Shown piece by piece: positions 7,443-40,377 of a stretch of 42,510 bases of DNA. The translations under genes and the position numbers were made by a program. Within the stretch, counting starts at the first letter, position 1; the number at the start of each line of letters is the position of its first letter. A model generated the notes under the pieces. It saw only the letters and a list, made by a program, of their open reading frames with translations, did not search any database and had not been told where the DNA came from. This DNA comes from Candidatus Moraniibacteriota bacterium. Its GTDB lineage: Bacteria > Patescibacteriota > Minisyncoccia > Moranbacterales > UBA1568. The stretch lies in NCBI GenBank assembly GCA_023261685.1, contig JAHFOM010000001.1:1-42510 (forward strand), read 5' to 3'.

Positions 7443-7674
7443 CTTACATTCTATCCTAAAGTGCAATGGTTCAACCGCCAAAAGAATTTTTTGGCTCTCG
7501 TTTCACACTGTGTGAAGAAGGTCTCTCGGCTCGAAAAAAGAAGCTTCTCCGCCATTGATTGGGGGCGACTTTTTTCTCGTTCAGCCGAGAGGTCCTGATG
7601 AGTGGTGGAATGGAGACAAAAAATTACTTTTGGTGGTTGAACTGAAATGAGCAAGTATTGCACTTCAGAATAGA
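7443..7674. repeat. Rod-like quasi-palindromic element, copy 1 (unclassified structured repeat)
   Basis: 232 bp, non-coding, and homologous to 15708-15943 (core roughly 85-90 percent identical by eye). It has long complementary arms and nested inner stems, with compensatory differences between the copies. Details are in the findings. Confidence 0.85.
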
Positions 7675-11474: not shown

Positions 11475-12626
11475 CTAGGAGAACAGTCCGCTGATTTTTT
11501 CGAGCAGGTGAAATGTAGAGAAATCACGCACGGTGATGACGACCATCAGCAATAGGAGCAGCATAAAACCTATCTGATGGATCATTCCTTCGGTTTTCCG
11601 GCGTATCGGCGACCCTTTGAGTTTCTCGATCAGGATGAAGAGGATGCGTCCGCCATCAAGCGCCGGAATCGGCAAGATATTGATGATGGCGAGATTGATA
11701 GAGAGGAGCGCGGCAAATTGGAGAAGATAGGCGATCCCGAGATCGCTCATCTGCTTGGTGAGATAGACGATGCCGACGGGACCAGTCACATCCACCGGCG
11801 CCCCCGTCCCTGCTCCGAACAAGCCGGCAAGCATCGATCCGAAAGCGCCGAGAATTGCCAGCGTGATGTTATAGGTAGCGACCGCTCCCTGATAGATGGA
11901 TTCATACCACGGATACGACACGGTAGCCGTCTCTGAAAAAGAAATCCCGAGACTTCCCTCGTTCGCCGGGTATTCCGTCCGTGGCATACCAGAAAGAACC
12001 ATTTCTTTGCCAAGCCGATTGATACGCATCTCTAGCATCTGTCCTCTGTGATCCGTGATGATCCCACTCACCTGCTCAAGAGTAGTGATCGGTGCCCCGG
12101 CAATGGTCAAAATCTCATCGCCGAGCTGGAGCCCCATCGCTTCGGCAGGCGTGCCTTTCTTGACTTCAAGGATCTGGATCTTGACATCGGAATACGCTGC
12201 CCGCTGACTCGAATCAATCGGCTGTGGCAAACCCAAAGTGAATACCGTGGTGATCAAGAACCACGCAAACAGCATATTCATCACGACACCCGCGCCGAGC
12301 ACCTTGACTCGCACCCATGCTGATTTTCGGGCAAAGCTGTCCAGATCATCATTTTGCCCGTCTTCGCCCTTGATCCGGACAAATCCGCCGAGCGGCAGCC
12401 AATTGAAAGAGTAAATCGTCTCTTTGACCCCGCCATCTTTACTTCCCCAGATGATTTTGTAGCGTCCCGTCTCCACATTCTTCACCACACCGATCAGACG
12501 TGGCGGAAAGCCAAAACCGAATTCATCTACTTTGATACCGTTTCGTCTCGCCGCGACGAAATGCCCGAGCTCGTGGACGAACACCAAGAGACCCAAGAGA
12601 ACAATGAAAATGAGGATTGTAAGCAT
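11475..12626 (-). CDS. rseP: RIP zinc metalloprotease RseP (M50 site-2 protease)
   Basis: 383 aa. HELGHFVAARRNG (HExxH) lies in the first TM. There is a central PDZ-like segment, and a C-terminal NILPIPALDGG motif. Confidence 0.9.
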   Translation of the reverse strand: MLTILIFIVLLGLLVFVHELGHFVAARRNGIKVDEFGFGFPPRLIGVVKNVETGRYKIIWGSKDGGVKETIYSFNWLPLGGFVRIKGEDGQNDDLDSFARKSAWVRVKVLGAGVVMNMLFAWFLITTVFTLGLPQPIDSSQRAAYSDVKIQILEVKKGTPAEAMGLQLGDEILTIAGAPITTLEQVSGIITDHRGQMLEMRINRLGKEMVLSGMPRTEYPANEGSLGISFSETATVSYPWYESIYQGAVATYNITLAILGAFGSMLAGLFGAGTGAPVDVTGPVGIVYLTKQMSDLGIAYLLQFAALLSINLAIINILPIPALDGGRILFILIEKLKGSPIRRKTEGMIHQIGFMLLLLLMVVITVRDFSTFHLLEKISGLFS

Positions 12627-13333: not shown

Positions 13334-14464
13334 CTAAAACTTACGTAACGCGAAGTAGAGTATTTCCCGATGATTCGGGTCATATTCGATGACACTCACG
13401 GTGCGATTGATTTCCAGCTGTGTCGTCGCCCATTTCGTTCCGCCATCGACAGACCGGTAGAAAGCGTTTCCGGAAGCGTAGACGATTTCATCCGAATTGG
13501 CGGGGTTGACAGCTATCGCGCGTACCGGAAATTTCTTCGAACTCTCGATGATATCCAAAGCTTCCCACGTCCTGCCGCTGTCGCGACTGCGGAAGACACC
13601 ATTCTTCGCGCCGGTATAGAGCGTGCCTGGACGAGAAACGTCGCTCGCCAAAGCCGTCATACCATCAGGTTTTTGCGAAAGAGCGTCTTTGGATGATGAA
13701 ACACTTCCCGCGTTCTGTCCCTCATAGATGCTTTCGCTTCTTTCGTTGGGCATTCTTGATGTGTATGTTTCCTCTGCCTCGACGTTCCATGTTTTTCCGC
13801 CGTCCGTTGAGATATTGACTCCCTTATCCAAAACGAGCAAGGCTATTTTTTCCGGCGCGCCTCTTTCAAACAAAATTTTTGTCACCGGTCCCTTGGCCAC
13901 TCCGATATTGTCCCACGTCGCACCGCCGTTGGTACTCTTGATAATCACTCCGGCACTGGTCCCAGCATAGAGCACGTCCGAAATGTCGGGACTCGCCCCG
14001 AGCGCGGTGATGACGGTACCCTTGCCCGGCTCGGTATAGATTTCTTTCCAATTCTTCCCTCCGTCGTCAGAGCGATACATCTTGGCTATGTCATTATACA
14101 CGCCGCTGGCATAGATCTGGTCGCTATTGTCACGACCAAAAGTCAGCCCATAGTTTTTCAGCGGCGGAAACACGAGCGGTTCCCAGCGTTCACCGCCGTC
14201 CGTTGTCTTGAAGAGTCCGCTACTGATGGTGCCGATGTAGATGGTTTCCGGATGACGCGGATCAATGACGAGCGACAGCACATCAGCTGAAGATATTTTC
14301 CGCTGCTCATCAACCGTCACTTTCGGCACGAACGTCGCCCCAGAGTCAAAGGACTTCCAGATACTCCCACCACCAGAAGCTGTCCCCACAGTCGGCAGGT
14401 TGAGACTGCACCCGGACAAGAAGAAAGCCGATACCGAAACCAGAGCTATTTTCCAAAAACGCAT
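13334..14464 (-). CDS. BNR/Asp-box repeat beta-propeller lipoprotein
   Basis: 376 aa with the lipoprotein signal VSAFFLSGCS. It has at least six Asp-box (SxDxGxTW-like) repeats: TTDGGERWE, SDDGGKNWK, STNGGATWD, STDGGKTWN, SRDSGRTWE and SVDGGTKWA. Confidence 0.8.
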   Translation of the reverse strand: MRFWKIALVSVSAFFLSGCSLNLPTVGTASGGGSIWKSFDSGATFVPKVTVDEQRKISSADVLSLVIDPRHPETIYIGTISSGLFKTTDGGERWEPLVFPPLKNYGLTFGRDNSDQIYASGVYNDIAKMYRSDDGGKNWKEIYTEPGKGTVITALGASPDISDVLYAGTSAGVIIKSTNGGATWDNIGVAKGPVTKILFERGAPEKIALLVLDKGVNISTDGGKTWNVEAEETYTSRMPNERSESIYEGQNAGSVSSSKDALSQKPDGMTALASDVSRPGTLYTGAKNGVFRSRDSGRTWEALDIIESSKKFPVRAIAVNPANSDEIVYASGNAFYRSVDGGTKWATTQLEINRTVSVIEYDPNHREILYFALRKF

Positions 14465-15707: not shown

Positions 15708-15943
15708 CTTACATTCCATTCTGAAGCACACCCATACTCACCTCAGTTCAGCCACCAAAAGAATTTTTTGGCTATCGTTTCACACTGTGTGAAGAAGGCC
15801 TCTCGGTTCGGAAAAATAAGCTTTTCCGCCATTGATTGGGGGCTGATGTTTCCGGTTAACCGAGAGGTCCTGATGAGTGGTGAAATGGAGACAAAAAATT
15901 ACTTTTGATGGTTGAACCATTGCACTTCAGGATAGGATGTAAG
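15708..15943. repeat. Rod-like quasi-palindromic element, copy 2
   Basis: 236 bp, homologous to 7443-7674, with both termini CTTACAT / ATGTAAG intact. The ~17-nt arm insertion lies on the opposite arm compared with copy 1. Confidence 0.85.
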
Positions 15944-16019: not shown

Positions 16020-16092
16020 GGGTCGTTAGCTCAGTTGGTAGAGCAGTGGCCTTTTAAGCCAACGGTCGCAGGTTCGAATCCTGCACGACCCA
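16020..16092 (+). tRNA. tRNA-Lys (anticodon UUU)
   Basis: I folded the cloverleaf by hand. The acceptor stem is GGGTCGT/ACGACCC, the D arm GCTC..GAGC, the anticodon loop CTTTTAA and the T arm GCAGG TTCGAAT CCTGC. The discriminator is A and no CCA is encoded. Confidence 0.95.
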
Positions 16093-29761: not shown

Positions 29762-30571
29762 TTATTGCTGTCCCTTGAAAAAATCGTTGACGGCGTAAGT
29801 GAGCTCGCTCGGGGTGATCTGCGTCTTAAGAAAGGATTTATTGACTAAGCCTGATTCTGAGAGCATCCGAATGGTTTCATCTTCAAGAGAAGCGGACATT
29901 ACAAAAATCGGAACGGCTTTCTTGGCTTCGACTTCTTTCAACCGTTTCACGATCTCTCGTCCATCCATCCCCGGCATCATCACGTCCGTTATAATCATAT
30001 CGTAATTACCATTCAGCGCTTCATGTAGACCGGATACGCCCTCCGGTTTCGTCACTACCTCGTAGCCTTCATCCCGCAGACGCTTGCCGAACATCTCGAC
30101 AAAGACGGCTTCATCTTCGATAAACAAAATGCGCTTACCGAGCTTCGGGTGTTCGGCGGGGTCCTGTTCCTGACGGGAAAAATTCTTCTTCTGCTCGCTA
30201 AATTGGTTCAAAAAACGGTTGACTTCAGCCACTACTTCCGAGGGCGAGAATTCCGTCTTGGAAATGAAACCGTCCGCGCCGAGCTTGAGACACTCCTCAC
30301 GGTCTTCCGAACTGCTCAAATTGCTGAATATCACTACCTTCAGATCCTCTGGATATGCGGGATCCGTCCGCAATGCCCTGAGCACCTCCGTTCCGCTGAG
30401 TTCGGGAATCACCAGATCAAGTAGTATCAGGTCAAACTTCTGCTCCAGTACCTCTTTGAGGACTGCCCGACCGGAAGCCACATTGAGCACCTCAAAACCG
30501 GAACTCTCAAATTTCTTCTTATAAATCTCCGCGATAAACTGGTCATCTTCGACGAAAAGAATCTTGGACAT
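29762..30571 (-). CDS. Response regulator with two tandem receiver (REC) domains and no output domain
   Basis: 269 aa. REC1 is MSKILFVEDD...LILLDLVIPELSG. REC2 is KRILFIEDE...MIITDVMMPGMDG...PIFVMSAS. Confidence 0.85.
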   Translation of the reverse strand: MSKILFVEDDQFIAEIYKKKFESSGFEVLNVASGRAVLKEVLEQKFDLILLDLVIPELSGTEVLRALRTDPAYPEDLKVVIFSNLSSSEDREECLKLGADGFISKTEFSPSEVVAEVNRFLNQFSEQKKNFSRQEQDPAEHPKLGKRILFIEDEAVFVEMFGKRLRDEGYEVVTKPEGVSGLHEALNGNYDMIITDVMMPGMDGREIVKRLKEVEAKKAVPIFVMSASLEDETIRMLSESGLVNKSFLKTQITPSELTYAVNDFFKGQQ

Positions 30572-30668: not shown

Positions 30669-31061
30669 CTACATAACTTCCCGAACATAGTCCACTGCCT
30701 TCTGAGGCGTCGTGAGAGATTTGATGAGGTAGAACCGTGTTTCAAACCCACCTATCTTCCTGATAATCTTGTCATCATCGACGTTCGTCAACATAATAAC
30801 AGGAGTTTTCGCCAATTGCTTATCGGGATCTGATTGTAATTCCTCCAATACTTCGATACCATTTTTTACCGGCATCTGAATATCCAGCAATATGACATCT
30901 GGTCTGGTTTCACGTATAACTCTCATTCCCACTTCGCCGTTCTCCGCCGAAGAGACACTAAATCCGTCCTGAGTAAATTTCATCACATAGATGTCACGGA
31001 TATCCTGATCATCCTCGATGATACAGACTTTCTTCTTTTCCCACACGTCTTGTTCGGTCAT
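30669..31061 (-). CDS. Single-domain response regulator (REC only)
   Basis: 130 aa with KKVCIIEDDQD...VILLDIQMPVKNG...PVIMLTN. Confidence 0.85.
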   Translation of the reverse strand: MTEQDVWEKKKVCIIEDDQDIRDIYVMKFTQDGFSVSSAENGEVGMRVIRETRPDVILLDIQMPVKNGIEVLEELQSDPDKQLAKTPVIMLTNVDDDKIIRKIGGFETRFYLIKSLTTPQKAVDYVREVM

Positions 31062-31156: not shown

Positions 31157-31184
31157 AATATAGCACATATTGACAGTTTTTCAA
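31157..31184 (-). promoter_or_regulatory. Candidate promoter TTGAAA-N16-TATATT for the REC genes
   Basis: The complement of 31179-31184 is TTGAAA and the complement of 31157-31162 is TATATT. Confidence 0.4.
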
Positions 31185-31205
31185 GAAACAGAAGCCTCAC
31201 TTCCC

Positions 31206-31322
31206 TATCCCCGAAAAAGAAGACTGATCGGAGGTACCGGCTTGGATTTTCAGATTGACGAGGAGGAGCTCGATGATGAAGCAAGAGCCTTTGCCCTGAC
31301 CGTCGGACTTTATTTAACAGCC
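31206..31322 (-). pseudogene. Detached histidine-kinase 3' tail, copy A (in-frame C-terminal fragment only)
   Basis: In the kinase frame it translates as IKSDGQGKGSCFIIELLLVNLKIQAGTSDQSSFSGIGK*. It is bounded upstream by a TAA stop. It is homologous to the real 3' end of the kinase gene at 33340-33462. The tracked ORF 31147..31329 reads a different frame of the same DNA. Confidence 0.65.
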
Positions 31323-31362
31323 CTTGCAAATCCCCGAGCGTAAGCTCGTGGGAGATTCATGC

Positions 31363-31716
31363 TCAGCTTGATGCATCTTCGGCTTTTTTTAGCGGATACC
31401 GCGTAAGTGATTGTTTGAGCACATTGGTATCCTCAGTCGCGGTTTTCCATACCGCCATGAGATCTATACCAAAGTAATCATGGATGAGCTTGTCACGCAT
31501 ACCGCAAATATCTTTCCATGGAACCTCCGGCGTCGCATCACAACATTCCGCTGAAAGTCGTTTTGCGGCTTCTCCGATAATTTCAAGTTTTCGCATCACA
31601 CCGTCCTGAAGAAGCGTATTTTCCGAAAACTGCTCAAAACCAAGCCCTGTGACATAACGCGCGATATCGTCAACTGCCCCTATGATGTGGCCGATATACA
31701 AATTATCCTTTTTCAT
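31363..31716 (-). CDS. hepT: HepT-family (DUF86/HEPN) toxin
   Basis: The ORF track gives 31363..31824. I prefer the start MKKDNLYIGH at 31716. It carries the Rx4HxY motif RDKLIHDY and overlaps the upstream MNT gene by 14 nt. Confidence 0.85.
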   Translation of the reverse strand: MKKDNLYIGHIIGAVDDIARYVTGLGFEQFSENTLLQDGVMRKLEIIGEAAKRLSAECCDATPEVPWKDICGMRDKLIHDYFGIDLMAVWKTATEDTNVLKQSLTRYPLKKAEDASS

Positions 31717-31993
31717 AAATCGTTTGGATATCGCGTAGCACTTCGTCTCGGATAAGCGGATGCAAAGAATCCTCCGTGACAAGATCAACGTCACGACCAA
31801 CTTTCTCTGAGAGTTCCCGCTCAAGGTGAATCAATTCGAGCAGGCTCATCGGTCTGTCCAATCGCACAAGGATATCAATATCACTCGTCGCCCCCGCTTC
31901 TCCTCGGGCGACTGAACCAAAAACACCAGCGTAGGACACCCCGCCAGCCACGAACAACGGCTTCAAAAATTGCAGTTCAAGGGTCTGTTTCAT
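31703..31993 (-). CDS. mntA: MNT-family nucleotidyltransferase antitoxin
   Basis: 96 aa with the minimal nucleotidyltransferase signature GVFGSVARGEAGATSDIDILV. Confidence 0.9.
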   Translation of the reverse strand: MKQTLELQFLKPLFVAGGVSYAGVFGSVARGEAGATSDIDILVRLDRPMSLLELIHLERELSEKVGRDVDLVTEDSLHPLIRDEVLRDIQTIYEKG

Positions 31994-31999
31994 ACGCTG

Positions 32000-32028
32000 A
32001 TTGTAGCAAGTCTCTTGTGGAAAATCAA
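32000..32028 (-). promoter_or_regulatory. Promoter TTGATT-N17-TACAAT, 6 nt from the MNT ATG (implies a leaderless transcript)
   Basis: The complement of 32023-32028 is TTGATT and the complement of 32000-32005 is TACAAT. The ATG lies at 31991-31993 and has no Shine-Dalgarno sequence. Confidence 0.6.
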
Positions 32029-32039
32029 GGCTTTCTTCT

Positions 32040-32165
32040 CTACTTCCCCAACCCCGCGAAAGAAGCCTGATCGGAGGTGCCGACTGCTATTTTCGGATTG
32101 ACGAGGGGGAGCTCGATGATGAAGCGGGCGCCTTTGCATGGACCAGCACCTTCTCCGTGGCATCC
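32040..32165 (-). pseudogene. Detached histidine-kinase 3' tail, copy B (in-frame C-terminal fragment only)
   Basis: It translates as ...GCHGEGAGPCKGARFIIELPLVNPKIAVGTSDQASFAGLGK* and is homologous to 33340-33462. It starts about 25 nt after the stop of the M20 gene. Confidence 0.65.
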
Positions 32166-32190
32166 TCTTTCAAAATTTTTACCACAATAT

Positions 32191-33279
32191 TCAACTCCGC
32201 TCCAAAAACTCGATCAATATCTCATACATCTCGTAAAGAGAGTTTGTATCTACCCATTCCCCACTCTGATGCGCTCCACCTCCTTTCGGTCTATAGAGAG
32301 ATGCAGGAACGCCGGACTCGGTAAAAAAGATTGCATCGCTCGTTCCGTTCTCATATACGAACGAAATATCCTTTTTCGTACGCTCACGAAGAATGCGTAC
32401 CAGAGTCTGTACATAGTGGTCATCTTCTACCGAAGAAAACATACCATTTTCAGCAATCATCTCAACCGCTCCTCTGGATCCAATTATCTTTTTTACGAGC
32501 GTAACAATTGCTTTCAGATCTTTACTCTGTATATACCGGATGTCGAAATACCCCAGCGCACATTCCGGTATTTGATTCAAACTGTTCTCACTCTCTATCC
32601 GCGTCAGTACCACGCTTGTCCGCCATGATTCTTTGGCGTTTGGCTCAGGAAATTTTTTCGCAATAATTTCCTGCAGACGCACCATTTTCAACAGGGGGTT
32701 GTCACCTTGCCACGGTTCTGAGGCGTGTGCGCTTTTCCCTGGTACTATCACCTTGATCTGAGCAAGCCCTTTCTGTTTTAAGACAATCCCCGTTTCATGA
32801 CCACCATCGGCTATAAATGCAAAGCATCCGCGATACCTTTCTTTTTCCAAAAGCATTCGCGTTCCGTATCCGGTCGTCTCTTCATCAGACGTTAGCATAA
32901 TCGCAATTTCTTTGTCTCCCCCTTTTTTCCGGTATTCGACGGTAGCATAGAGATATGCAACGATACCAGCCTTCATATCATATGCACCACGACCGTACAA
33001 CTTTGTGCCTTTCAATATCGGTTTGAAAAGTAATTTCTCCCCCGGTACGACATCAATATGTCCTGAAAAAATTATATCCACTGTCTTTTTTGCAGTCGTT
33101 GACAGAACAAGGGCAGGGTGCCCACGAAAAACATACCTCTTTATATAAAAGTCTTCCTTGAAAAGGTTTCCCAAGATAGCGAGACACACTTCCTGTTCCT
33201 TAATATTCGGTTCAGTCGATTCAATCGCCATCAGACGTTTCGAAAGACTGATAATCTGTTTTTTCAATTCTTGTGTCAT
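32191..33279 (-). CDS. M20-family metallopeptidase (ArgE/DapE/CPG2-like deacylase)
   Basis: 362 aa with metal-ligand motifs GHIDVVPG, GRGAYDMKAG and TSDEETTG. Confidence 0.85.
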   Translation of the reverse strand: MTQELKKQIISLSKRLMAIESTEPNIKEQEVCLAILGNLFKEDFYIKRYVFRGHPALVLSTTAKKTVDIIFSGHIDVVPGEKLLFKPILKGTKLYGRGAYDMKAGIVAYLYATVEYRKKGGDKEIAIMLTSDEETTGYGTRMLLEKERYRGCFAFIADGGHETGIVLKQKGLAQIKVIVPGKSAHASEPWQGDNPLLKMVRLQEIIAKKFPEPNAKESWRTSVVLTRIESENSLNQIPECALGYFDIRYIQSKDLKAIVTLVKKIIGSRGAVEMIAENGMFSSVEDDHYVQTLVRILRERTKKDISFVYENGTSDAIFFTESGVPASLYRPKGGGAHQSGEWVDTNSLYEMYEILIEFLERS

Positions 33280-33339
33280 AGTCTGTGATTTACACTAAAA
33301 ATTTTTGGTTGAGAAAAGTATTTTTATAAAGCCCTGATG

Positions 33340-33462
33340 CTACTTCTTCCCCACCCCAGAGAAAGAAGCCTGATCAGAGGTGCCAGCCTTGATTTTCGGA
33401 TTGATGAGGGGGAGCTCGATAATGAATCTTGCGCCTTTGCCCGGACCGTCTGATTCCACGTG
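33340..33462 (-). repeat. Histidine-kinase 3' tail, copy C (the one still attached to the gene)
   Basis: It encodes IHVESDGPGKGARFIIELPLINPKIKAGTSDQASFSGVGKK*. By eye it is roughly 75-80 percent identical in nucleotides to copies A and B. Confidence 0.8.
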
Positions 33463-35049
33463 GATATGACCGCCGTGCGCTTCGACGAAGTTCTTGCCGA
33501 CGAAGAGTCCGAGTCCCGTACCGGAGACCACCATCTTGGTCGTTTCATTGCTCCGGCTGAATTTCTCAAACAATTTATTCTTGTCTTCGGGGTGAATGCC
33601 GATACCAGTGTCTGAGACGATGATGCGCGCTACCCGGTCATCCCCCTCCACTGATACTGTGACTCCCCCCTCCTTGGTATACTTCAGAGCATTGTCGATC
33701 AGATTGGACACGACTTCTTTGATCTTGCCCGCATCCAGCGTGAGCTTGGGCAGTCCGACTTTCGGCAGATGGATCTTGAGCGAGAGCTTCTTGTTCTTCG
33801 CCGCCAGAGCGAACATATCCACGAGCTCCGCCACCAGTGGCTCCAGCTGTGTCGGTGCAAAAGCATACTGGATGCGTCCCGCTTCAATGCGCGAGATATT
33901 GAGGAGATCTTCTACCAATTGCACGAGCCGGCTGTTGATGGTATAGAGTTTGTCGAGTACGTCTTGGATCGCCACGGGGACTTTGCCATAGGAGCCTTCG
34001 AGGATGAGCGAGACATAGCCCTTGATAGCGGTCAGCGGCGTGCGCAACTGGTGCGAAGCGATGGAGATGAATTCCGATTTTGCCATATCGAGCTCGCGCA
34101 AGCGGTCATTGGCGACTGCCAGACTGTTCGAAAGTTTCTGGAGTTCTTCCTTGCGCTCTACTTCCGCTTTAACCGACCGGATGAGAATCCAACCAGCCAC
34201 CAGCGTAATGATGAGCGTAATACTGACCAAGATATAGTTCATCATACTAGTCACCACTGTCAGCATCGCGGCAATGAGGAGAAACTGCGTCACCACCAGC
34301 GCCTGCGCCCCGATGAGCTTGATATCAAAGGCTTTGAATTTGACGATGAGGTAGGCGAGGAAACCAATAAATACTGGCATTCCAAAAAGTCCATATTGTT
34401 CCCATTCAAAATTATCAAACAGACTCGCCCAATAACTACTTATAGAAAAGGAGAGGAGGAAGAAACCAATTCCTATTGTAAACAACAAAATTTTTCGCTT
34501 TTCTTCACGCTTAATCGCTTTTCTGTAGCGAAAGAATGAAACTCCTAAAATCCAAAATAATAATAAAAAGCCCACGATATAGTAGTAATCCGTGTAGAGT
34601 TTTGCTTCTGTTGATTCACAATTTGGAACATCAAATCCACTTAAATGAAAGTTGGTCATCGATAAAATAATCACTGGGAGCAATAGCATCCCAAAAATCA
34701 ACTTTTTATTAAGAGAAATATCACATCCATTTAGAAAAGAATAAAAGAGATAGACGGCTGATACATATATCAACATATAAATAACCCCCAAATATGCCCA
34801 TGTAAACATTATTTTGCTCCCATCCGTAGTCGTCCAAATAATCAAATCAAAATACGACCATAGTGAAAAAAATATAGAGAGCATCAAAAGTAAGCGGGCT
34901 GAGATATTTTTTCTATTTTTGACAAAAACAAACAAAGCTAACAATAAGGATACTGCCGCTGTCGGTATGTGAGAATAATACAATAACAATGGGTTTGATT
35001 GAATAAACTGATAGCAACTTTCGATATTGGTGACTAAGTTGAAATTCAT
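33340..35049 (-). CDS. Sensor histidine kinase with an N-terminal ~7-TM sensor domain
   Basis: 569 aa. H-box SIASHQLRTPLTAIKGY, N-box NLIDNALKYT, G1 DTGIGI and G2 GTGLGL. The N-terminal ~270 aa are polytopic membrane. Confidence 0.9.
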   Translation of the reverse strand: MNFNLVTNIESCYQFIQSNPLLLYYSHIPTAAVSLLLALFVFVKNRKNISARLLLMLSIFFSLWSYFDLIIWTTTDGSKIMFTWAYLGVIYMLIYVSAVYLFYSFLNGCDISLNKKLIFGMLLLPVIILSMTNFHLSGFDVPNCESTEAKLYTDYYYIVGFLLLFWILGVSFFRYRKAIKREEKRKILLFTIGIGFFLLSFSISSYWASLFDNFEWEQYGLFGMPVFIGFLAYLIVKFKAFDIKLIGAQALVVTQFLLIAAMLTVVTSMMNYILVSITLIITLVAGWILIRSVKAEVERKEELQKLSNSLAVANDRLRELDMAKSEFISIASHQLRTPLTAIKGYVSLILEGSYGKVPVAIQDVLDKLYTINSRLVQLVEDLLNISRIEAGRIQYAFAPTQLEPLVAELVDMFALAAKNKKLSLKIHLPKVGLPKLTLDAGKIKEVVSNLIDNALKYTKEGGVTVSVEGDDRVARIIVSDTGIGIHPEDKNKLFEKFSRSNETTKMVVSGTGLGLFVGKNFVEAHGGHIHVESDGPGKGARFIIELPLINPKIKAGTSDQASFSGVGKK

Positions 35050-35096: not shown

Positions 35097-35972
35097 CTAT
35101 ATTTTATCTAGTAAAGCATAAATTTTTAGCCGCTTAAAATCTATGCTGGACTCTTTGAAATTTAAGTTTTTAAATAAAGAAGATTTATAATGATAAACTA
35201 CTAAATCATTCTCACTTTTTTTTGGAACCAACGAAACTACAAGTGGCTTTACCCCAAATAATCCATATACTTTCTTAAAAGCAGGGGTGATAACTTCCTG
35301 CACAAAGCTTCCCTCATTCTTATCAGACAAATAATTTTCAAATAAAATACCATAGCAAATCAATAAAGCAAAATAATACTCATAGTATCTCTTGGCAACA
35401 CCACCATGCTTACTATACCATTCTGACATATCAAATACTGCCCCATCTAAATTCACACCGTTTCCTCGTAGCAATTCATGATGAAAATCAACAAGATTCA
35501 TCTCCGATAAAGTTAGAACATCACAAATTTTCTTACTTTCTGCCTGATTAAAATCAACTATCTTCTCAACAAATAACTTATCTCCAGCGTGCTTCCCTAC
35601 TCCATCTCGAAATACCAGTTTCCCTAAATAGTATTTACTAAGATTTCGAAAAGTAAACTTGTCCTGCAAGTATTCTAGAAAAACGTATTTCAGTCCTGAC
35701 GCCTCTGCCATATCCAAAAACCATGAAGTTTCATTGTTTGGAGAAGCAACATGTCTTGCGAGTATCGCTCGTGGCTCAGATAGGAAAACCTCCGGTATAT
35801 CCCCTCCCAAAAAATCCTCCACCTTCTTCCGCAACTCCTTGTCATTCCACCGCCTCCAAATCTCTTCCTTGGCTACCGAGAGCGGGGTATAGATGCCCAG
35901 ATCCACCGCTGTCTGCACCGTTTCTGTTGTCTTCGCTATCTCTGTTTCCTGCGTTTGCTTCTTGTCAGTCAT
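35097..35972 (-). CDS. Hypothetical protein (291 aa, no recognisable domain)
   Basis: A long ORF in the AT-rich block with its own candidate promoter. Its codon composition matches the neighbouring AT-rich genes. Confidence 0.6.
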   Translation of the reverse strand: MTDKKQTQETEIAKTTETVQTAVDLGIYTPLSVAKEEIWRRWNDKELRKKVEDFLGGDIPEVFLSEPRAILARHVASPNNETSWFLDMAEASGLKYVFLEYLQDKFTFRNLSKYYLGKLVFRDGVGKHAGDKLFVEKIVDFNQAESKKICDVLTLSEMNLVDFHHELLRGNGVNLDGAVFDMSEWYSKHGGVAKRYYEYYFALLICYGILFENYLSDKNEGSFVQEVITPAFKKVYGLFGVKPLVVSLVPKKSENDLVVYHYKSSLFKNLNFKESSIDFKRLKIYALLDKI

Positions 35973-36081
35973 ACCCTTTCGGAATTACTCATTAACTCCC
36001 ATACTCATCAGCATACTCAGCCACCGTGCCACAAAAAACAAAACAACATACCTAAAAACAAGCATCCTTATCACTGCTTTG

Positions 36082-36109
36082 ATTATACAATAAACCCCTC
36101 TTTTTGCAA
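36082..36109 (-). promoter_or_regulatory. Candidate promoter TTGCAA-N16-TATAAT for 35097..35972
   Basis: The complement of 36082-36087 is TATAAT, immediately preceded by TG. The -35-like TTGCAA lies at 36104-36109, inside a small hairpin (CCCCT/AGGGG). Confidence 0.45.
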
Positions 36110-36200
36110 GGGGGGAAAGGCAGGAGCAAACCTATTCAGAGAGGCACTCAAGCCCTGACACTCCCATACAACCCGCCCTCCTTGATATATTTCAAAACAT

Positions 36201-36965
36201 CTACAATAATTCCTTCTCTATCACCTCAAATAACGGCCTCATATATTCATCCAGTTTGATACCATGTTGATCAAAAAATTGAGCAAAGTCCGTCCTCTTC
36301 TTATCAAGCATGACAATCTCGCCAAATTCCGGCTGCTCGTCATTTTTCTGTAATTGCAAAACAAAATCTTCGTACCTCTGCATAAACTGCAGACTCATTT
36401 CATTAAGAATGACTCTGTACACGACCGTCATTTTGTCCGTCGGTCCGCCTTCTTTGAAATACGCCAGATCAAACGACTTGATTCTTGATTGATCCCCGAT
36501 GTCGATCCCGAGCTCTTCTGCCAGTTCTTTTTTGATATTATGCTCAAAGTCAAAAACATCACCCCGCAAATCATCACTATCGATCCCACCTCCACAGAGC
36601 TGGTAGATGCCAGCACGAGACGTCTGCTCCCCCATTTTTCCAAACACTATTTTCCCATCTTCTGTCTCCACGAGTGCCGCCGTATGGATAATGTGCACGC
36701 CGTATTCATCAAGCGTATCCACATTCTGACAGTAGAGATAGTGGGCATAATCCGTTTTTTCTACCACTATTTCCATACGATCTTCGAACGTTTCTTTTTT
36801 TGTGACCGTAAAAACATCGCCGCGTTTGTAAGATTTGCCACTTTGAAGCAGCGTGTCCCAATAGGCATCAATCTTTCCCTGTATATCCGGAGGAAGCATC
36901 ACCTCCTGATTACTGAAACGCACGATGAGTTTTTTTGTCAGTGGGGAAACTACAAAGTCTTTCAT
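36201..36965 (-). CDS. Nudix-like hydrolase domain protein (functional call tentative)
   Basis: 254 aa. The segment GGGIDSDDLRGDVFDFEHNIKKELAEELGI resembles a Nudix box (Gx5Ex7REUxEExGU) but with irregular spacing and K in place of R. It has a 4-nt overlap with the upstream kinase gene. Confidence 0.45.
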   Translation of the reverse strand: MKDFVVSPLTKKLIVRFSNQEVMLPPDIQGKIDAYWDTLLQSGKSYKRGDVFTVTKKETFEDRMEIVVEKTDYAHYLYCQNVDTLDEYGVHIIHTAALVETEDGKIVFGKMGEQTSRAGIYQLCGGGIDSDDLRGDVFDFEHNIKKELAEELGIDIGDQSRIKSFDLAYFKEGGPTDKMTVVYRVILNEMSLQFMQRYEDFVLQLQKNDEQPEFGEIVMLDKKRTDFAQFFDQHGIKLDEYMRPLFEVIEKELL

Positions 36966-37948
36966 AAGGTCTGATTGAGCTTGTTAAAAAAATTCCACGT
37001 TTCTAACGCACGAGCTTCATTGTGCGCCTCCTGACTTGCATATTTCTTATTATCCCAAGAAAAATAAGATTGCTCTACGGAATCAATAATAAAGCGCAGA
37101 CATAATTCGAGTGTAACATACTTTATACAAGATACGACTTGAACATATGAAACTTTTCCTGTTTTACTGTTCGCAGAATTATACCCAGTAAGGAATCTCT
37201 CGGTTGCTTTCTTAAAGTCAGACCTGCTGGATAATGACAAAAGTGACCGGAGACAATCTCCAATATCAATGTAGATAGATCCGATCATAAAAGTATCATA
37301 GTCTATGAAAACAAGGGGGGCATGCTGTTTCGTAAATAGAATATTTTCTATTCGTGGGTCACCATGAATAATCTGCTGTTTTTCAGAAAGGATGTCAAAA
37401 TACTTTTCAAGATTATTTACTGTATCACCAAGTATGTTTTGTAGCTGAGGAGTATACCTACTTTTGTTTATGGATATAGCTTTCTGAATATAGAAATTTT
37501 TTTGATGAAAGCCATTGAGAATATGTTTTGGCTTGTAATGAAGATCTGCAAGGTCTTTATGTAGCAGACCCAACAGCAAACCCACATTTCTGTGAAGACT
37601 CTTAGAAATGTGTTTTTGTGAAAAACTAATGCCATTGACATATTCATATACTCTCCATAAACTGTCGTCTCTCTCATAAAACATTGTACACTGCCGTGAT
37701 CGCAATAATCGTGGGCAATCCCACTTTCTTTTCAGTAAATGTTGCGTTATAACATCAATATCATACATTAATTTCTTTTTGAGCATTTGATGTAATTTCT
37801 GTATTACAAACTCCTTACCATAGATGTTTTTTACGTAAAATGTTTTATTGATAAGCCCACCCTTAAGAACCTCTGCCTTAGAAATACGACCAATATCATA
37901 ACTTTGTATGACTCTTTTAATCTCATCATTAAAGATTGATGTAATCAT
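36962..37948 (-). CDS. Aminoglycoside-phosphotransferase/choline-kinase-fold small-molecule kinase
   Basis: 328 aa with the catalytic loop IIHGDPRIENILF (HxDxxxxN) and the metal-binding FIDYDT. Confidence 0.8.
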   Translation of the reverse strand: MITSIFNDEIKRVIQSYDIGRISKAEVLKGGLINKTFYVKNIYGKEFVIQKLHQMLKKKLMYDIDVITQHLLKRKWDCPRLLRSRQCTMFYERDDSLWRVYEYVNGISFSQKHISKSLHRNVGLLLGLLHKDLADLHYKPKHILNGFHQKNFYIQKAISINKSRYTPQLQNILGDTVNNLEKYFDILSEKQQIIHGDPRIENILFTKQHAPLVFIDYDTFMIGSIYIDIGDCLRSLLSLSSRSDFKKATERFLTGYNSANSKTGKVSYVQVVSCIKYVTLELCLRFIIDSVEQSYFSWDNKKYASQEAHNEARALETWNFFNKLNQTL

Positions 37949-38633
37949 AAGGAAATGCCTTTATGGATATTTCGTCGAATATAACATTTGGCGATGTTTT
38001 TGAAATGTACAAAATAAGCTCTGCAATATCATCCGTCTGCAGTATATTTTCTTCTACAGCATTATCTACAGAGCGCGACATGTCAGTAAGTACGCTTCCT
38101 GGAGAAACGAGCATACATCGGATTCCAGTAGAAAAGTTCTCTTTTTGCAATGATTTTACAAGTCCCATCAATCCTGCCTTGCTGGATGCGTAAGAGCAGT
38201 CCTTCTCTGTTCCGGAAGATCCCCACCTAGATCCAATGAGAATGATGGTACCCTTTATACTTTTATCTCGGAAATATTGTGTTCCAAATTTTGCTACGTG
38301 AAAGGATCCTGTTAGATTTACATCTATCGTGGATTTCCAATCATCACGATCTGTTTTTTCTGAATTTTTAAGTTTCAATATCCCAGCACAATTCACTATA
38401 CACTGAAAATCTTCCCTATTCGACTGTTGAAAAAAGTTAGATACATCAGAAAAATTTGTTACATCAAGAGTCTGATAAAAAAAGCTGTTACTTTTCTGAA
38501 TATCTTCCGGTAAAGAATTGCTAATATCAACACCGTAAACGACAAATCCATTATCAAGAAACTTTCGAGCAATACTCCTACCCATACCCCCACAAACACC
38601 TACAATAAGTATTCCATTTTTAGAAGGCATCAT
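37929..38633 (-). CDS. Short-chain dehydrogenase/reductase (SDR)
   Basis: 234 aa. The cofactor loop is VGVCGGMGRSIA and the catalytic YxxxK is YASSKAG. It overlaps both neighbouring genes, by 20 nt and 14 nt. Confidence 0.85.
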   Translation of the reverse strand: MMPSKNGILIVGVCGGMGRSIARKFLDNGFVVYGVDISNSLPEDIQKSNSFFYQTLDVTNFSDVSNFFQQSNREDFQCIVNCAGILKLKNSEKTDRDDWKSTIDVNLTGSFHVAKFGTQYFRDKSIKGTIILIGSRWGSSGTEKDCSYASSKAGLMGLVKSLQKENFSTGIRCMLVSPGSVLTDMSRSVDNAVEENILQTDDIAELILYISKTSPNVIFDEISIKAFPYDYINL

Positions 38634-39612
38634 AAAATTTTTGAAAGGGGGGATTATCTATTGGGGAATAGTTAGAACTTGTGAGGTACTCTTTATCCCT
38701 CTTGCTTAGGTTACCAATCTTGTTTTTATTATAGACAAAGAAATGCCCATTTCTCGATACATAATTTATTTCGACGTTATTAAATAATGACTCGTGTATA
38801 GCCTCATTCATATCATTTTCTCCATATAAAATAGGTATGCGAGATTTTTGCTTAGCAAGAAACCCTGTAATGATATCAATTACTTTGGCGGAGGGAGTCT
38901 CTATACTACAGATATCACCATGTCCCCCATTCTCTATTGCAAACATAGTGAGATCAATAACATTTTGAGCAGTTAACATATAACGTGTCATACGTTTATC
39001 GCGTATCGTCACTGGCTTGTTTTCAACTATCTTTTTTTCAATAACATCTGTAAGCGATCCATTTGAATGAAGAATATTACCAAACCTGATAGCGATAAAC
39101 TTAATATGTGGGATATTTGCATTCTCTCCTAAAATTTCTAGAAATCGTTTTGAGGCTCCCATTGTGGATGAGGATTGTGCTGCTTTATCAGAAGAACATA
39201 AAATAACTCTCTCTATAAAATTACAGTTTCGCACAACCTTCATGATATTTGAAAAAGCAACAATATTTTCAAAAGCCATCTTTTCTGGATAGCAATACCC
39301 GGTAGACACATGTTTTAATGAGGCACAATGGATAACAATATTGACCTCGTATTTACAGAGAATTTCTTCTATAAATCTTGCATCAAGAACATCCCCAAAT
39401 TCAATATGAAACCGCTCTTTACTTTCAGACTCCCTTTTAATCTCCATAAGTTTTGCTAGAGCATCTTCCGATCGATCAATAGCACATATTTCATTTCCCT
39501 GAGATAAAAGAAATTTAGATAGGCTTAACCCTACTGTTCCGCCAGCTCCAGTGATAAGAATTTTTTTCATATGCTTTACATATGCTTTATAAGAGTATAA
39601 AAAATTGAGCAT
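38620..39612 (-). CDS. Polysacc_synt_2 family NDP-sugar 4,6-dehydratase/epimerase (CapD/PseB/WbpM-like)
   Basis: 330 aa, with an alternative start MKKILITGAGG at 39570. Motifs: ILITGAGGTVG, CASLKHV..YPEKMAFENI, SSDKAAQSSSTMGASK (the MxxxK variant typical of this family) and RFGNILHSNGS. Confidence 0.8.
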   Translation of the reverse strand: MLNFLYSYKAYVKHMKKILITGAGGTVGLSLSKFLLSQGNEICAIDRSEDALAKLMEIKRESESKERFHIEFGDVLDARFIEEILCKYEVNIVIHCASLKHVSTGYCYPEKMAFENIVAFSNIMKVVRNCNFIERVILCSSDKAAQSSSTMGASKRFLEILGENANIPHIKFIAIRFGNILHSNGSLTDVIEKKIVENKPVTIRDKRMTRYMLTAQNVIDLTMFAIENGGHGDICSIETPSAKVIDIITGFLAKQKSRIPILYGENDMNEAIHESLFNNVEINYVSRNGHFFVYNKNKIGNLSKRDKEYLTSSNYSPIDNPPFQKFYDAF

Positions 39613-39636
39613 CCTGGCGGTGCAGAATGCTCATAG

Positions 39637-40377
39637 TCAACCAGATGTTGGGATTCCAAAATACTTTATTATAAGATTGGAATTTTTCGAAAGAAAATCA
39701 AGATCTTCTAACGTCCCAAAATCAAAAAAGAACTTATTATTCATAATACTCCATACATCGGGGATGAGCCTTTCCATTGATTCTCGTTCAACATAAACAT
39801 CGTGGCTAGTATCAATGTTATCCAAGAACCTCTTTGTGTCCAAAACATAGAACCCCATCGTGCTCGAGGGAACACCTGAACACGTATTGTTTTTATCATA
39901 AAGTGACAGAATACTTCTTGTTTTTCTGTCTACTTTGACAAGACCGTAATTTGGAACATTCTTCTTGGTAGTAGTAAGCACAAGGCACGCCGCTTTTCTC
40001 TCAATGTGTTCCTTGCAAATTTTTCGCAAGTCAACACTCCATATATTATCACCAGTCAAAAGCAACGTATGATTATGTCTCACTTCAGACACCCCGGTAA
40101 AAGAACTAAAGGCAGTGCTTTTGGGATAGTCTTCCTCTACAAACCGTACTGACGAAGGAAAATTATTGTGAATTTCTTCCTCAATGAGCCATCCATTACA
40201 GGCGTTACTTCCTGTAACAATCACTTCGCTGATACCGTTTCGCAATAACCAAAAGACTAGATATCGCAAAAACGGAACCCCTCCAAAAGGGAGCATGCAC
40301 TTCGGTTTTTGCTCACAAATTTTACCAAGGCGACTTGCTCTTCCAGATGCTATGATAACTGCAGAAAAATGCACCAT
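39637..40377 (-). CDS. Sugar-phosphate nucleotidyltransferase (NTP_transferase family)
   Basis: 246 aa with the N-terminal signature AVIIASGRASRLG...KPKCMLPFGG. An AGGAGG RBS lies 4 nt upstream. It is the first gene of the AT-rich operon. Confidence 0.8.
   Translation of the reverse strand: MVHFSAVIIASGRASRLGKICEQKPKCMLPFGGVPFLRYLVFWLLRNGISEVIVTGSNACNGWLIEEEIHNNFPSSVRFVEEDYPKSTAFSSFTGVSEVRHNHTLLLTGDNIWSVDLRKICKEHIERKAACLVLTTTKKNVPNYGLVKVDRKTRSILSLYDKNNTCSGVPSSTMGFYVLDTKRFLDNIDTSHDVYVERESMERLIPDVWSIMNNKFFFDFGTLEDLDFLSKNSNLIIKYFGIPTSG

Follow-up and report, generated by a model that had tools for sequence, protein, structure and literature searches.

Orphaned 3' ends of a sensor histidine kinase gene delimit variable cargo at a kinase–response regulator junction in Moranbacteria

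The subject of this analysis is the junction between a sensor histidine kinase gene (HK) and its neighboring response-regulator (REC) genes in a Candidatus Moraniibacteriota bacterium, as it is found in a stretch of 42,510 nucleotides (hereafter the window) that spans positions 1 to 42,510 of contig JAHFOM010000001.1 (assembly GCA_023261685.1). Read along the minus strand, the genes run in the order HK, M20 peptidase, MNT, HepT, REC130, a double-REC regulator, an ABC transporter and AspRS, and the end of the kinase gene recurs twice beyond the gene itself. We refer to the three copies as tails A, B and C, to a copy detached from its gene as an orphan, and to the genes between copies as cargo:

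33340..35049, minus strand: sensor histidine kinase of 569 aa, the anchor gene (Pfam HisKA and HATPase_c; orthologues across Moranbacteria)
33340..33462, minus strand: tail C, the live HK 3' end, of which ~33340-33430 was apparently imported with M20 (repeat search, alignments, informative sites)
32191..33279, minus strand: cargo 1, M20-family metallopeptidase of 362 aa (Pfam Peptidase_M20, M20_dimer)
32040..32160, minus strand: tail B, a putatively displaced native HK end (orphan), native-like over 32040-~32127 and without a start codon
31703..31993, minus strand: cargo 2a, MNT nucleotidyltransferase antitoxin of 96 aa (Pfam NTP_transf_2, PF01909, E 5e-15; Polbeta)
31363..31716, minus strand: cargo 2b, HepT-like RNase toxin of 117 aa (Pfam HepT-like, PF01934, E 5e-25; called in the matching contig L001)
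31197..31313, minus strand: tail A, putatively the oldest orphan HK end, decayed (P-to-L changes, in-frame stop upstream)
30669..31061, minus strand: single-domain response regulator REC130 of 130 aa, the native downstream flank (Pfam Response_reg)
29762..30571, minus strand: double-REC response regulator REC269 of 269 aa, the conserved HK partner (Pfam; directly follows HK in 21 relatives)

HK has the attributes of a two-component sensor kinase, namely HisKA and HATPase_c domains, adjoining response-regulator genes and conserved synteny. Its C-terminal extension (...ELPxxNPKIxxGTSDQ...) is conserved among orthologues, and its homologues are labelled Moranbacteria/Moraniibacteriota, within the Patescibacteria or candidate phyla radiation (CPR). 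MNT and HepT, being adjacent genes that overlap at 31703-31716, are predicted to form a type VII toxin-antitoxin pair. Pfam scans of window open reading frames (ORFs) of at least 110 aa detected no recombinase or transposase domain. An earlier interpretation made from the letters alone (the sequence-only reading) had named the M20 gene, the MNT-HepT pair and the REC genes past tail A, and had noted the lack of a recombinase in the window; the Pfam results agree with it on both counts.

A repeat search of the window returned a single direct-repeat family with three copies of 121 nt (31197-31317, 32040-32160 and 33343-33463, at spacings of 843 and 1303 nt). In local alignments the tails are pairwise ~81-83% identical across 103-121 nt, and because blastn E-values between them are ~1e-25, their similarity is not due to chance. 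All three lie on the minus strand in the HK reading frame and close on a stop codon (TAG at 33340-33342 in C, TAG at 32040-32042 in B and TGA at 31197-31199 in A), with similarity lost 0-6 nt past the stop. Homology of tail A begins at about -110, where negative positions (e.g., -98) are nucleotides counted back from the HK stop. This anatomy is a direct observation from repeat search, alignments and blastn, and it bears out the sequence-only reading in its claim of three in-frame, abruptly ending kinase tails that bracket M20 and MNT-HepT; the coordinates given there for B and C are also right, while tail A lies at 31197-31313 and not at 31206-31322 (~9 nt off). The longest exact run common to any two tails is 18 nt, and an independent ENA contig that matches the window (L001; L-numbers denote loci of relatives, L002 being the closest relative) has an identical structure, with 10 differences over 19,171 nt.

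The tails themselves appear unstructured. Rfam searches at the gathering threshold (window) and at E <= 1 (region) returned two tRNAs plus noise and thus no known RNA in the tails, no conserved core or inverted-repeat structure was found in them, and an attC-like fold is absent, the predicted folds on either strand being less stable than those of shuffled sequence (z = +1.1 to +1.9). An inverted match of 13 nt, of tail C with DNA past tail B, was judged to be at chance level. Through tail B, in another frame, runs a 57-aa ORF with an ATG start (31990-32163, minus strand), whose TGA overlaps the ATG of MNT (ATGA); this resembles translational coupling but is probably fortuitous.

The HK-REC junction was surveyed across 79 GTDB loci and ~30 contigs from other collections, together with a viral-contig scan, and each locus was searched for orphans with its own kinase. 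The commonest state is an empty site: in 21 species-level relatives (e.g., L004) HK is followed by a gap of 30-170 nt, REC269 and then AspRS, which is presumably the ancestral arrangement. About 12 lineages hold inserts of 1-5.7 kb between HK and REC269, and 11 orphan HK fragments were found in nine lineages, the window's two included. Read downstream from the kinase, the relatives' arrays are as follows:

L002/L003: HK, MNT2-HepT2, orphan, 114/128-aa coiled-coil ORF, orphan, REC130
L005: HK, 405-aa ORF, UDP-glucose dehydrogenase (UGDH), methyltransferase, orphan, REC
L024: HK, radical SAM, GNAT, 231-aa ORF, orphan
L042: HK, B12-binding radical SAM, polyprenyl synthase, NUDIX, orphan
L015: HK, SPASM fragment, methyltransferase, orphan
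L045: HK, MNT-HEPN, mini-orphan, second MNT-HEPN
L011: second kinase (HK2), PhyH, NTP-transferase, NUDIX, mini-orphan, REC
L108 (12 contigs): HK, MNT-HepT, frameshifted orphan of ~190 nt, REC

Cargo differs each time, comprising M20, four distinct MNT-HepT or MNT-HEPN pairs, the coiled-coil ORF, radical SAM with GNAT, UGDH with methyltransferase, polyprenyl synthase with NUDIX, and PhyH with NTP-transferase and NUDIX. The sequence-only reading had proposed that related loci be compared for empty sites and for different cargo between the same repeats, and both are seen: besides the 21 empty junctions, cargo between tails varies in L002/L003, L005, L015, L024, L042, L045, L011 and L108. Three full-length tandem kinases at the locus, an arrangement that would make A and B simple deletion relics, do not occur in the close relatives. 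The 12 contigs that share one identical kinase (P0051) all carry the same HK, MNT-HepT, orphan and REC array, without population polymorphism.

The orphans are uniform in kind and variable in length. All 11 consist of the extreme HK 3' end through the last codon, none being a 5' or internal piece, and each covers less than 270 nt of a gene that is 1.7 kb long, with 5' boundaries at ~25, 44, 85, 97, 110, 119, 120, 144-180, 190, 240 and 268 nt. Within the window's clade these boundaries cluster at -85 to -119, the first orphan of L002 (o1) beginning exactly at -97. Nucleotide similarity of the orphans ends +1 to +6 past the stop, and the last cargo gene ends 0-130 nt ahead of each orphan. Pfam scans, with precomputed Pfam annotation for ~20 loci, detected no recombinase in ~12 cargo sets or within ±10 kb at ~100 related loci, and no cognate integrase-bearing element using the same site was found in the GTDB loci, the other contigs or the viral-contig scan. 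The latter, made by tail-peptide alignment, gave no confirmed match and so no phage attP candidate, and when metagenome contigs were scanned with the kinase protein, no more than 13 loci, all of them distant, came back.

Some loci in the survey show features of their own. Two full-length kinase paralogues, 33-47% identical, lie in tandem or within 6 kb of each other in L011, L032, L019 and L069. In L015 the kinase stop is directly followed (11632-11865) by a 3' remnant (77 aa) of a radical-SAM/SPASM gene, which is similar to the C-terminal end of the radical-SAM gene that L024 and L098 carry intact as cargo, and cargo made up of radical SAM plus methyltransferase recurs behind the kinase in distant lineages.

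The arrival of the M20 gene has left a readable trace in the tails on either side of it. The HK genes of the window and L002 agree at 90-96% of positions along the core but at only 79-83% over the final ~100 nt, and tail C shares 82.8% identity with the L002 HK tail. That same L002 tail is the best match of tail B anywhere, with 91.7% identity over 96 nt, versus 82.9% between tails B and C. Taking the L002 HK tail as a proxy for the native sequence, informative sites identify tail C as the native-like copy upstream of -99 (21:1) and tail B as the native-like copy downstream of -88 (15:1). The first ~22 nt of tail B (-119 to -98; ~32138-32158) are a weak in-frame kinase homologue (16/25 nt), which we regard as a putative "donor-left" piece. 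The exchange point lies within the shared block GCAAAGGCG, at ~33431-33440 and ~32128-32137 (about -97 to -89).

The switch at this point is directly observed, and it shows a chimeric kinase, its body down to ~33441 being native-like and its last ~90 nt of foreign origin. Tail C then represents attL (native-left plus donor-right) and tail B attR (donor-left plus native-right), which is the mark of a single reciprocal (Campbell-type) crossover introducing tail C together with M20. A single crossover is favored because two independent ones are not expected to coincide within 10 nt. The donor would have carried a 119-nt kinase-end homologue plus M20 and would have been circular or repeat-bearing; we infer a circular one. 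The suggestion of the sequence-only reading that the incoming DNA supplies a replacement end is thus seen directly for the M20 event, where tail C is foreign from about -88 and tail B is the native end, although it does not extend to L005, where the orphan is the incongruent copy.

The divergence between live tails and orphans was expressed as synonymous (dS) and non-synonymous (dN) divergence from Nei-Gojobori counts. The values are dS 0.66 and dN 0.02 in L024 (27 synonymous vs four non-synonymous changes), 1.19 and 0.014 in L015 (13 vs one), 0.37 and 0.05 in L042, 0.65 and 0.11 in L005, and 0.53 and 0.12 for the window pair C-B (10 vs nine, on 26.5 vs 78.5 sites), the last confirming the synonymous divergence between B and C that had been pointed out earlier. 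Because divergence is mostly synonymous (dS 0.4-1.2, dN 0.01-0.12), one copy of each pair is foreign, and live tail and orphan must have diverged as functional kinase parts in separate lineages. The orphans are young relative to the live-orphan divergence, and in L024, L015 and L042 even young orphans are short, in keeping with their having been "born short". Tail A and the second orphan of L002 (o2) differ with a dN/dS of ~0.75 and are decaying neutrally.

Comparison of the window with L002 also gives an impression of the pace of exchange. The two share a 6.7-kb downstream block at 95.4% identity, and because this block begins inside the last orphan, at -83, tail A and L002 o2 are the same old scar; tail A is the oldest orphan and predates the split between the two lineages. 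Identity is 89.7% over the final 1050 nt of the kinase, all DNA between the kinase and the 6.7-kb block is unrelated, and the proteins of the two MNT-HepT pairs, though in the same position, are only 40% (MNT) and 38% (HepT) identical. Since the intervening DNA is unrelated and the pairs are this dissimilar, cassette turnover must be fast.

A second recombination boundary was noticed inside the kinase itself (window ~34320-35049, the first ~730 nt; breakpoint between L002 and L003 at L002 8730). L002 and L003 are 98.6% identical from kinase nt ~730 on and unalignable before it, in the sensor domain and upstream genes, and because this part cannot be aligned even where the downstream sequence of two genomes is 90-98.6% identical, the sensor domain was swapped along with upstream accessory genes. 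The conserved kinase core thus has a variable region on either side. Just ahead of the kinase, a block of ~5-6 kb (~35100-40300; L001 2215-7414) that encodes an NTP-transferase, an epimerase, an SDR, an APH-like kinase, a NUDIX-like protein and a 291-aa ORF is missing from L003, which shares the flanking Peptidase_S9 region with the window at 89%; the block is a strain-variable island.

Our interpretation is that the HK-REC junction of Moranbacteria is probably a recurrent docking site for foreign genes, which enter by crossover at the gene end. Incoming DNA from a related lineage would carry a fragment homologous to the kinase 3' end followed by cargo, and would undergo a single reciprocal recombination with the resident gene end (Campbell-type, from a circular or repeat-bearing donor). 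The donor gene end would complete the kinase ORF, with the cargo coming next, and the displaced resident end, fused to the donor-left part, would persist as an untranslated orphan ahead of the native downstream genes and their promoter. The window would record at least two such events, an older one that left orphan A and whose slot has since exchanged its cargo, and a recent one that brought tail C and the M20 peptidase and displaced B. An orphan might moreover serve as a right-hand homology arm, such that a unit of tail, cargo and tail could spread or be swapped by ordinary recombination. We infer that host homologous or short-homology recombination is likelier than a dedicated integrase. As for the earlier proposal of cassette-like integration at a gene 3' end, twice in tandem, its structure and history are borne out, whereas the integrase-type mechanism that it implied found no support.

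Several observations weigh against this interpretation. Five insert-bearing lineages (L006, L008, L009, L078 and L098) have no detectable orphan, and all genomes examined are metagenome-assembled; no circular form or excision product turned up in the metagenome-assembled contigs. In relatives, M20 homologues (70-79%) close a PALP / ATP-grasp / MR_MLE / M20 operon that has no kinase in its vicinity, and none of their contexts shows a donor arrangement in which M20 adjoins a kinase with tail C, in either order. Tails that are ~80% identical overall with at most 18 nt of exact identity make a poor RecA-type substrate, and a crossover in an identical block of 9-10 nt could equally reflect a recombinase core or microhomology. 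Lastly, in L005 it is the orphan and not the live tail that is incongruent with the kinase body, the orphan being 85% identical to window-type tails and the live tail 72-75%, against 70% for the kinase body; this orphan precedes relics of other genes, and some orphans may thus be leftovers of larger block replacements.

L005 has a layered history of its own. Between its orphan and REC (13594-13843) lie 137 nt of an APH-like relic (90%) and 122 nt of a NUDIX-like relic (82%) of window genes, which are closer to the window than the L005 core genes are (70-76%) and are joined by an 8-nt overlap that suggests microhomology-mediated deletion. Its informative sites form a mosaic, window-like, then L005-like, then L002-like, from which no single event could be reconstructed. 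The locus looks like a whole-block replacement with its right junction in the old kinase end, possibly followed by gene conversion, and end replacement as a general rule needs qualifying in so far as some events replaced the whole kinase block and not only its end.

Classical site-specific integration, in which integrase-less islands of CIME-like or satellite-like type would use the kinase 3' end as attB with an integrase acting in trans, is an unlikely account, although much of the anatomy is compatible with it. The target 3' end is duplicated and its ORF restored, accretion is in tandem with the newest element next to the gene, the M20 crossover falls in the short identical block, the boundaries of the window clade are clustered, and RecA recombination would not be efficient at 80% identity. 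Sequential integration leaving partial target copies is, moreover, documented for tRNA-targeting tycheposons (10.1101/2020.12.28.424599). Against this stands the lack of any integrase in the window, the ~12 cargo sets and the flanks of the ~100 related loci, while repeats of 25-268 nt, an about tenfold span across lineages, and tails of differing sequence would call for many different integrases; no viral contig encodes the tail, and the tails lack inverted-repeat or hairpin structure. Instead of a fixed crossover core with a constant repeat length across insertions, we found boundaries that shift from event to event, with a local preference possible within the window clade. For these reasons (boundaries of 25-268 nt, no integrase, no core or attC fold, and no phage or plasmid with the tail) the analogy to tRNA/tmRNA integrase islands drawn from the sequence alone was not upheld.

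It is still less probable that the orphans are deletion relics, i.e., that a second full-length kinase, a paralogue or a xenologue that came with its neighbors, once lay downstream of the cargo and later lost its 5' part. Tandem full-length kinase paralogues do occur in L011, L019, L032 and L069, the L005 orphan is followed by APH-like and NUDIX-like relics and resembles window-type kinases (85%) more than the resident kinase does (72-75%), and similarity would end at the stop in any case, as non-coding DNA at a dS of ~0.5 is unalignable. The tandem paralogues, however, are at 33-47% identity ancient and no intermediates, and all 11 orphans are below 270 nt with an exact 3' end, with no 5', middle or long fragment among them. 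Orphans that have barely decayed (L024, L015) are already short and abut a cargo gene. Finally, the live kinase of the window is chimeric at the boundary of its orphan, which a relic of a second kinase would not bring about and which contradicts this account for the window.

Mobilization of the cassettes by HUH (Y1) transposases of the IS200/IS605 insertion-sequence type was considered in view of a hairpin at the junction of cargo 2 and tail A, listed here with two promoter-like sites nearby:

31332..31352, minus strand: solo IS200-type end hairpin, CCCACGAGC-TTAC-GCTCGGGG, separating HepT from tail A, the only such copy in the window (0 expected by chance)
32000..32028, minus strand: promoter-like site (TTGATT, 17-nt spacer, TG-TACAAT) right after the tail B stop and upstream of MNT, a consensus match only
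31157..31184, minus strand: promoter-like site (TTGAAA, 16-nt spacer, TG-TATATT; 10/12 matches) right after tail A and upstream of REC130, a consensus match, within the block conserved with L002

The hairpin folds with z = -2.9. In L005 a further copy separates the HK stop from the cargo, and in L105 two copies flank an IS200-family Y1_Tnp gene (E 2e-31), forming an intact IS200 that follows an M20 homologue. Nevertheless, IS200/IS605 transposition makes no duplication and needs two ends, while the window holds one hairpin, most cassettes hold none and no paired left-end and right-end hairpins were found around cassettes; the mechanism was rejected on account of the solo hairpin. HUH-transposase elements are thus shown to visit cassette junctions, and the duplicated gene ends are left unexplained by them. 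A metagenome assembly chimera was likewise rejected, since the same structure appears across independent assemblies and studies (L001 among them) and no exact run above 18 nt is common to any two tails; we hold it very improbable that either IS200-type mobilization or such a chimera accounts for the locus. In-situ duplication of the kinase end during insertion (slippage, tandem or long target-site duplication), suggested by direct repeats flanking inserted DNA, can hardly be credited at all and was rejected, because neutral decay of a local copy cannot yield the dS of 0.4-1.2 and dN/dS of 0.01-0.24 seen in the pairs, tail B is closer to the HK tail of L002 than to tail C, and what lies between the copies shows no relation to what follows them.

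Two further observations concern structured elements. The hairpin has the consensus CCCNCGRGC-TTAC-GCYCGGGG, with copies at L105 7124-7144 and 7631-7651, L005 9855-9875 and L018 4875-4968 and a compensatory A-T to G-C change between copies. Elsewhere in the window, an element of ~175 nt is present twice (7469-7642 and 15746-15917), the copies being 92% identical with sharp ends (GTTCA...TGAAC), and the second lying ~100 nt from a tRNA gene (16020-16092). It forms a single long and very stable hairpin (-84.8 kcal/mol, z = -8.4) that holds CUGAUGAG and CGAAA motifs, has no Rfam match (hammerhead included), and may be a miniature inverted-repeat transposable element-like or an unclassified structured element.

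Gene-end crossover might also operate beyond the kinase. Across ~1.5 Mb of related loci the pattern of a gene end followed by its orphan is nearly confined to HK, with one extra case in dnaJ of L075 (Paceibacterota), where the gene at 98-874 is followed ~480 nt downstream, at 1357-1422, by an orphan of its last ~23 codons plus stop (FSPPTKLSRSAKKAIEDLREEGL and the stop codon). Only as a tentative idea do we entertain "gene-end cassettes" as a class, i.e., cargo joined to the last 25-270 nt of a core gene, inserted by a single crossover without a cassette-encoded recombinase and, with the orphan as right-hand homology arm, transferable and exchangeable among relatives. The kinase locus may be the most active example of such a general mechanism in streamlined CPR, and the L075 dnaJ orphan hints at its generality.

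CPR/Patescibacteria have tiny genomes with few recognized mobile elements, and their strain-specific gene gain is poorly understood. The HK-REC junction points to a reproducible route of gene gain in at least nine lineages, with entry at a conserved kinase end and the gene kept intact by its new end, and with cargo that is often a toxin-antitoxin pair and otherwise a small metabolic module. Its reciprocal-chimera signature makes the recombination event readable from sequence, and an orphan gene end closing at a stop codon is a simple, searchable scar, which could help in mapping such insertion sites across whole genomes and in dating the acquisition of genes by uncultured bacteria. The position of the cargo between a sensor kinase and its response regulators may also couple cargo expression to the signaling operon.

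Known systems resemble the locus in part. Phage 21 and e14, which integrate into the 3' end of E. coli icd, supply an alternative end of ~100-165 nt with mostly synonymous differences, such that the ORF is kept and the displaced end remains as an orphan at the far junction; they encode an integrase themselves and cross over at one fixed site. The kinase locus shares with them a protein-coding target, a replacement 3' end, synonymous differences and the orphan at the far junction, and the direct repeats of the target 3' end, one of which restores the ORF, are those of icd- and tRNA-type islands. It differs in that Pfam scans of the window and of the relatives' cargo found no integrase inside the inserted DNA, the cargo consists of 0.35-3.7 kb of ordinary accessory genes, repeat length varies between events and two-cassette arrays occur. 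In the CIMEs (cis-mobilizable elements) and integrative and conjugative elements (ICEs) at the fda 3' end of Streptococcus thermophilus, cognate ICEs supply the integrase and the repeats are short and near-identical. Integrase-less DNA, att-like direct repeats derived from a gene 3' end and tandem accumulation are common to CIMEs and the present locus, whereas here no cognate element was found in the loci and contigs surveyed and the repeats are ~80% identical.

In ISCR1 complex class 1 integrons the 3'-conserved segment is partly duplicated around captured genes, and a circular intermediate recombines into the resident copy. The cargo between a full and a truncated copy of a conserved segment, and the homologous-recombination mechanism favored here, are alike; yet there an IS91-like rolling-circle transposase adjoins the cargo, while here there is none beside the cargo and only the solo IS200-type hairpin. 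With no intI gene in the scanned ORFs and no attC-like fold in the tails, the locus is not an integron array, and with a single hairpin in the window, TnpA only in L105 and no flanking hairpin pairs, it does not fall among IS200/IS605 elements or palindrome-associated transposable elements (PATEs) either. In homology-facilitated illegitimate recombination and at flexible-island hotspots, a core gene anchors acquisition, normally without a duplicated gene end. The conserved core gene as homologous anchor and a hotspot that holds different genes in each strain are found here as well, unlike the duplicated end, which is the rule at this junction (11 orphans in ~14 insert-bearing lineages). Orphan modules of Rhs/CdiA combine conserved 5' homology with a variable toxin tip and swap the protein C-terminus. 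In them too, small genes alternate with partial 3' gene fragments behind a full-length gene, whereas at the kinase it is the conserved extreme end that is repeated and whole downstream genes that vary.

Sequential integrations at one gene end that leave partial target copies are known from the tRNA-targeting tycheposons of Prochlorococcus and from degraded remnants of these (10.1101/2020.12.28.424599). As in tycheposons and in tRNA/tmRNA islands generally, older elements at the kinase are pushed away, partial target copies lie between cargo, and the host genome is streamlined with few classical mobile elements; unlike in tycheposons, the target is a kinase ORF, no copy carries a tyrosine recombinase or replication module, and boundaries are unfixed. 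The locus is hence no member of the icd/tRNA islands (no integrase, no fixed core), the integrons (no attC) or the ISCR1 systems (no rolling-circle transposase). What appears to be new is a recurrent and apparently recombinase-free gene gain in CPR with a clean crossover signature, the outcome of which resembles that of the icd and tRNA-island systems.

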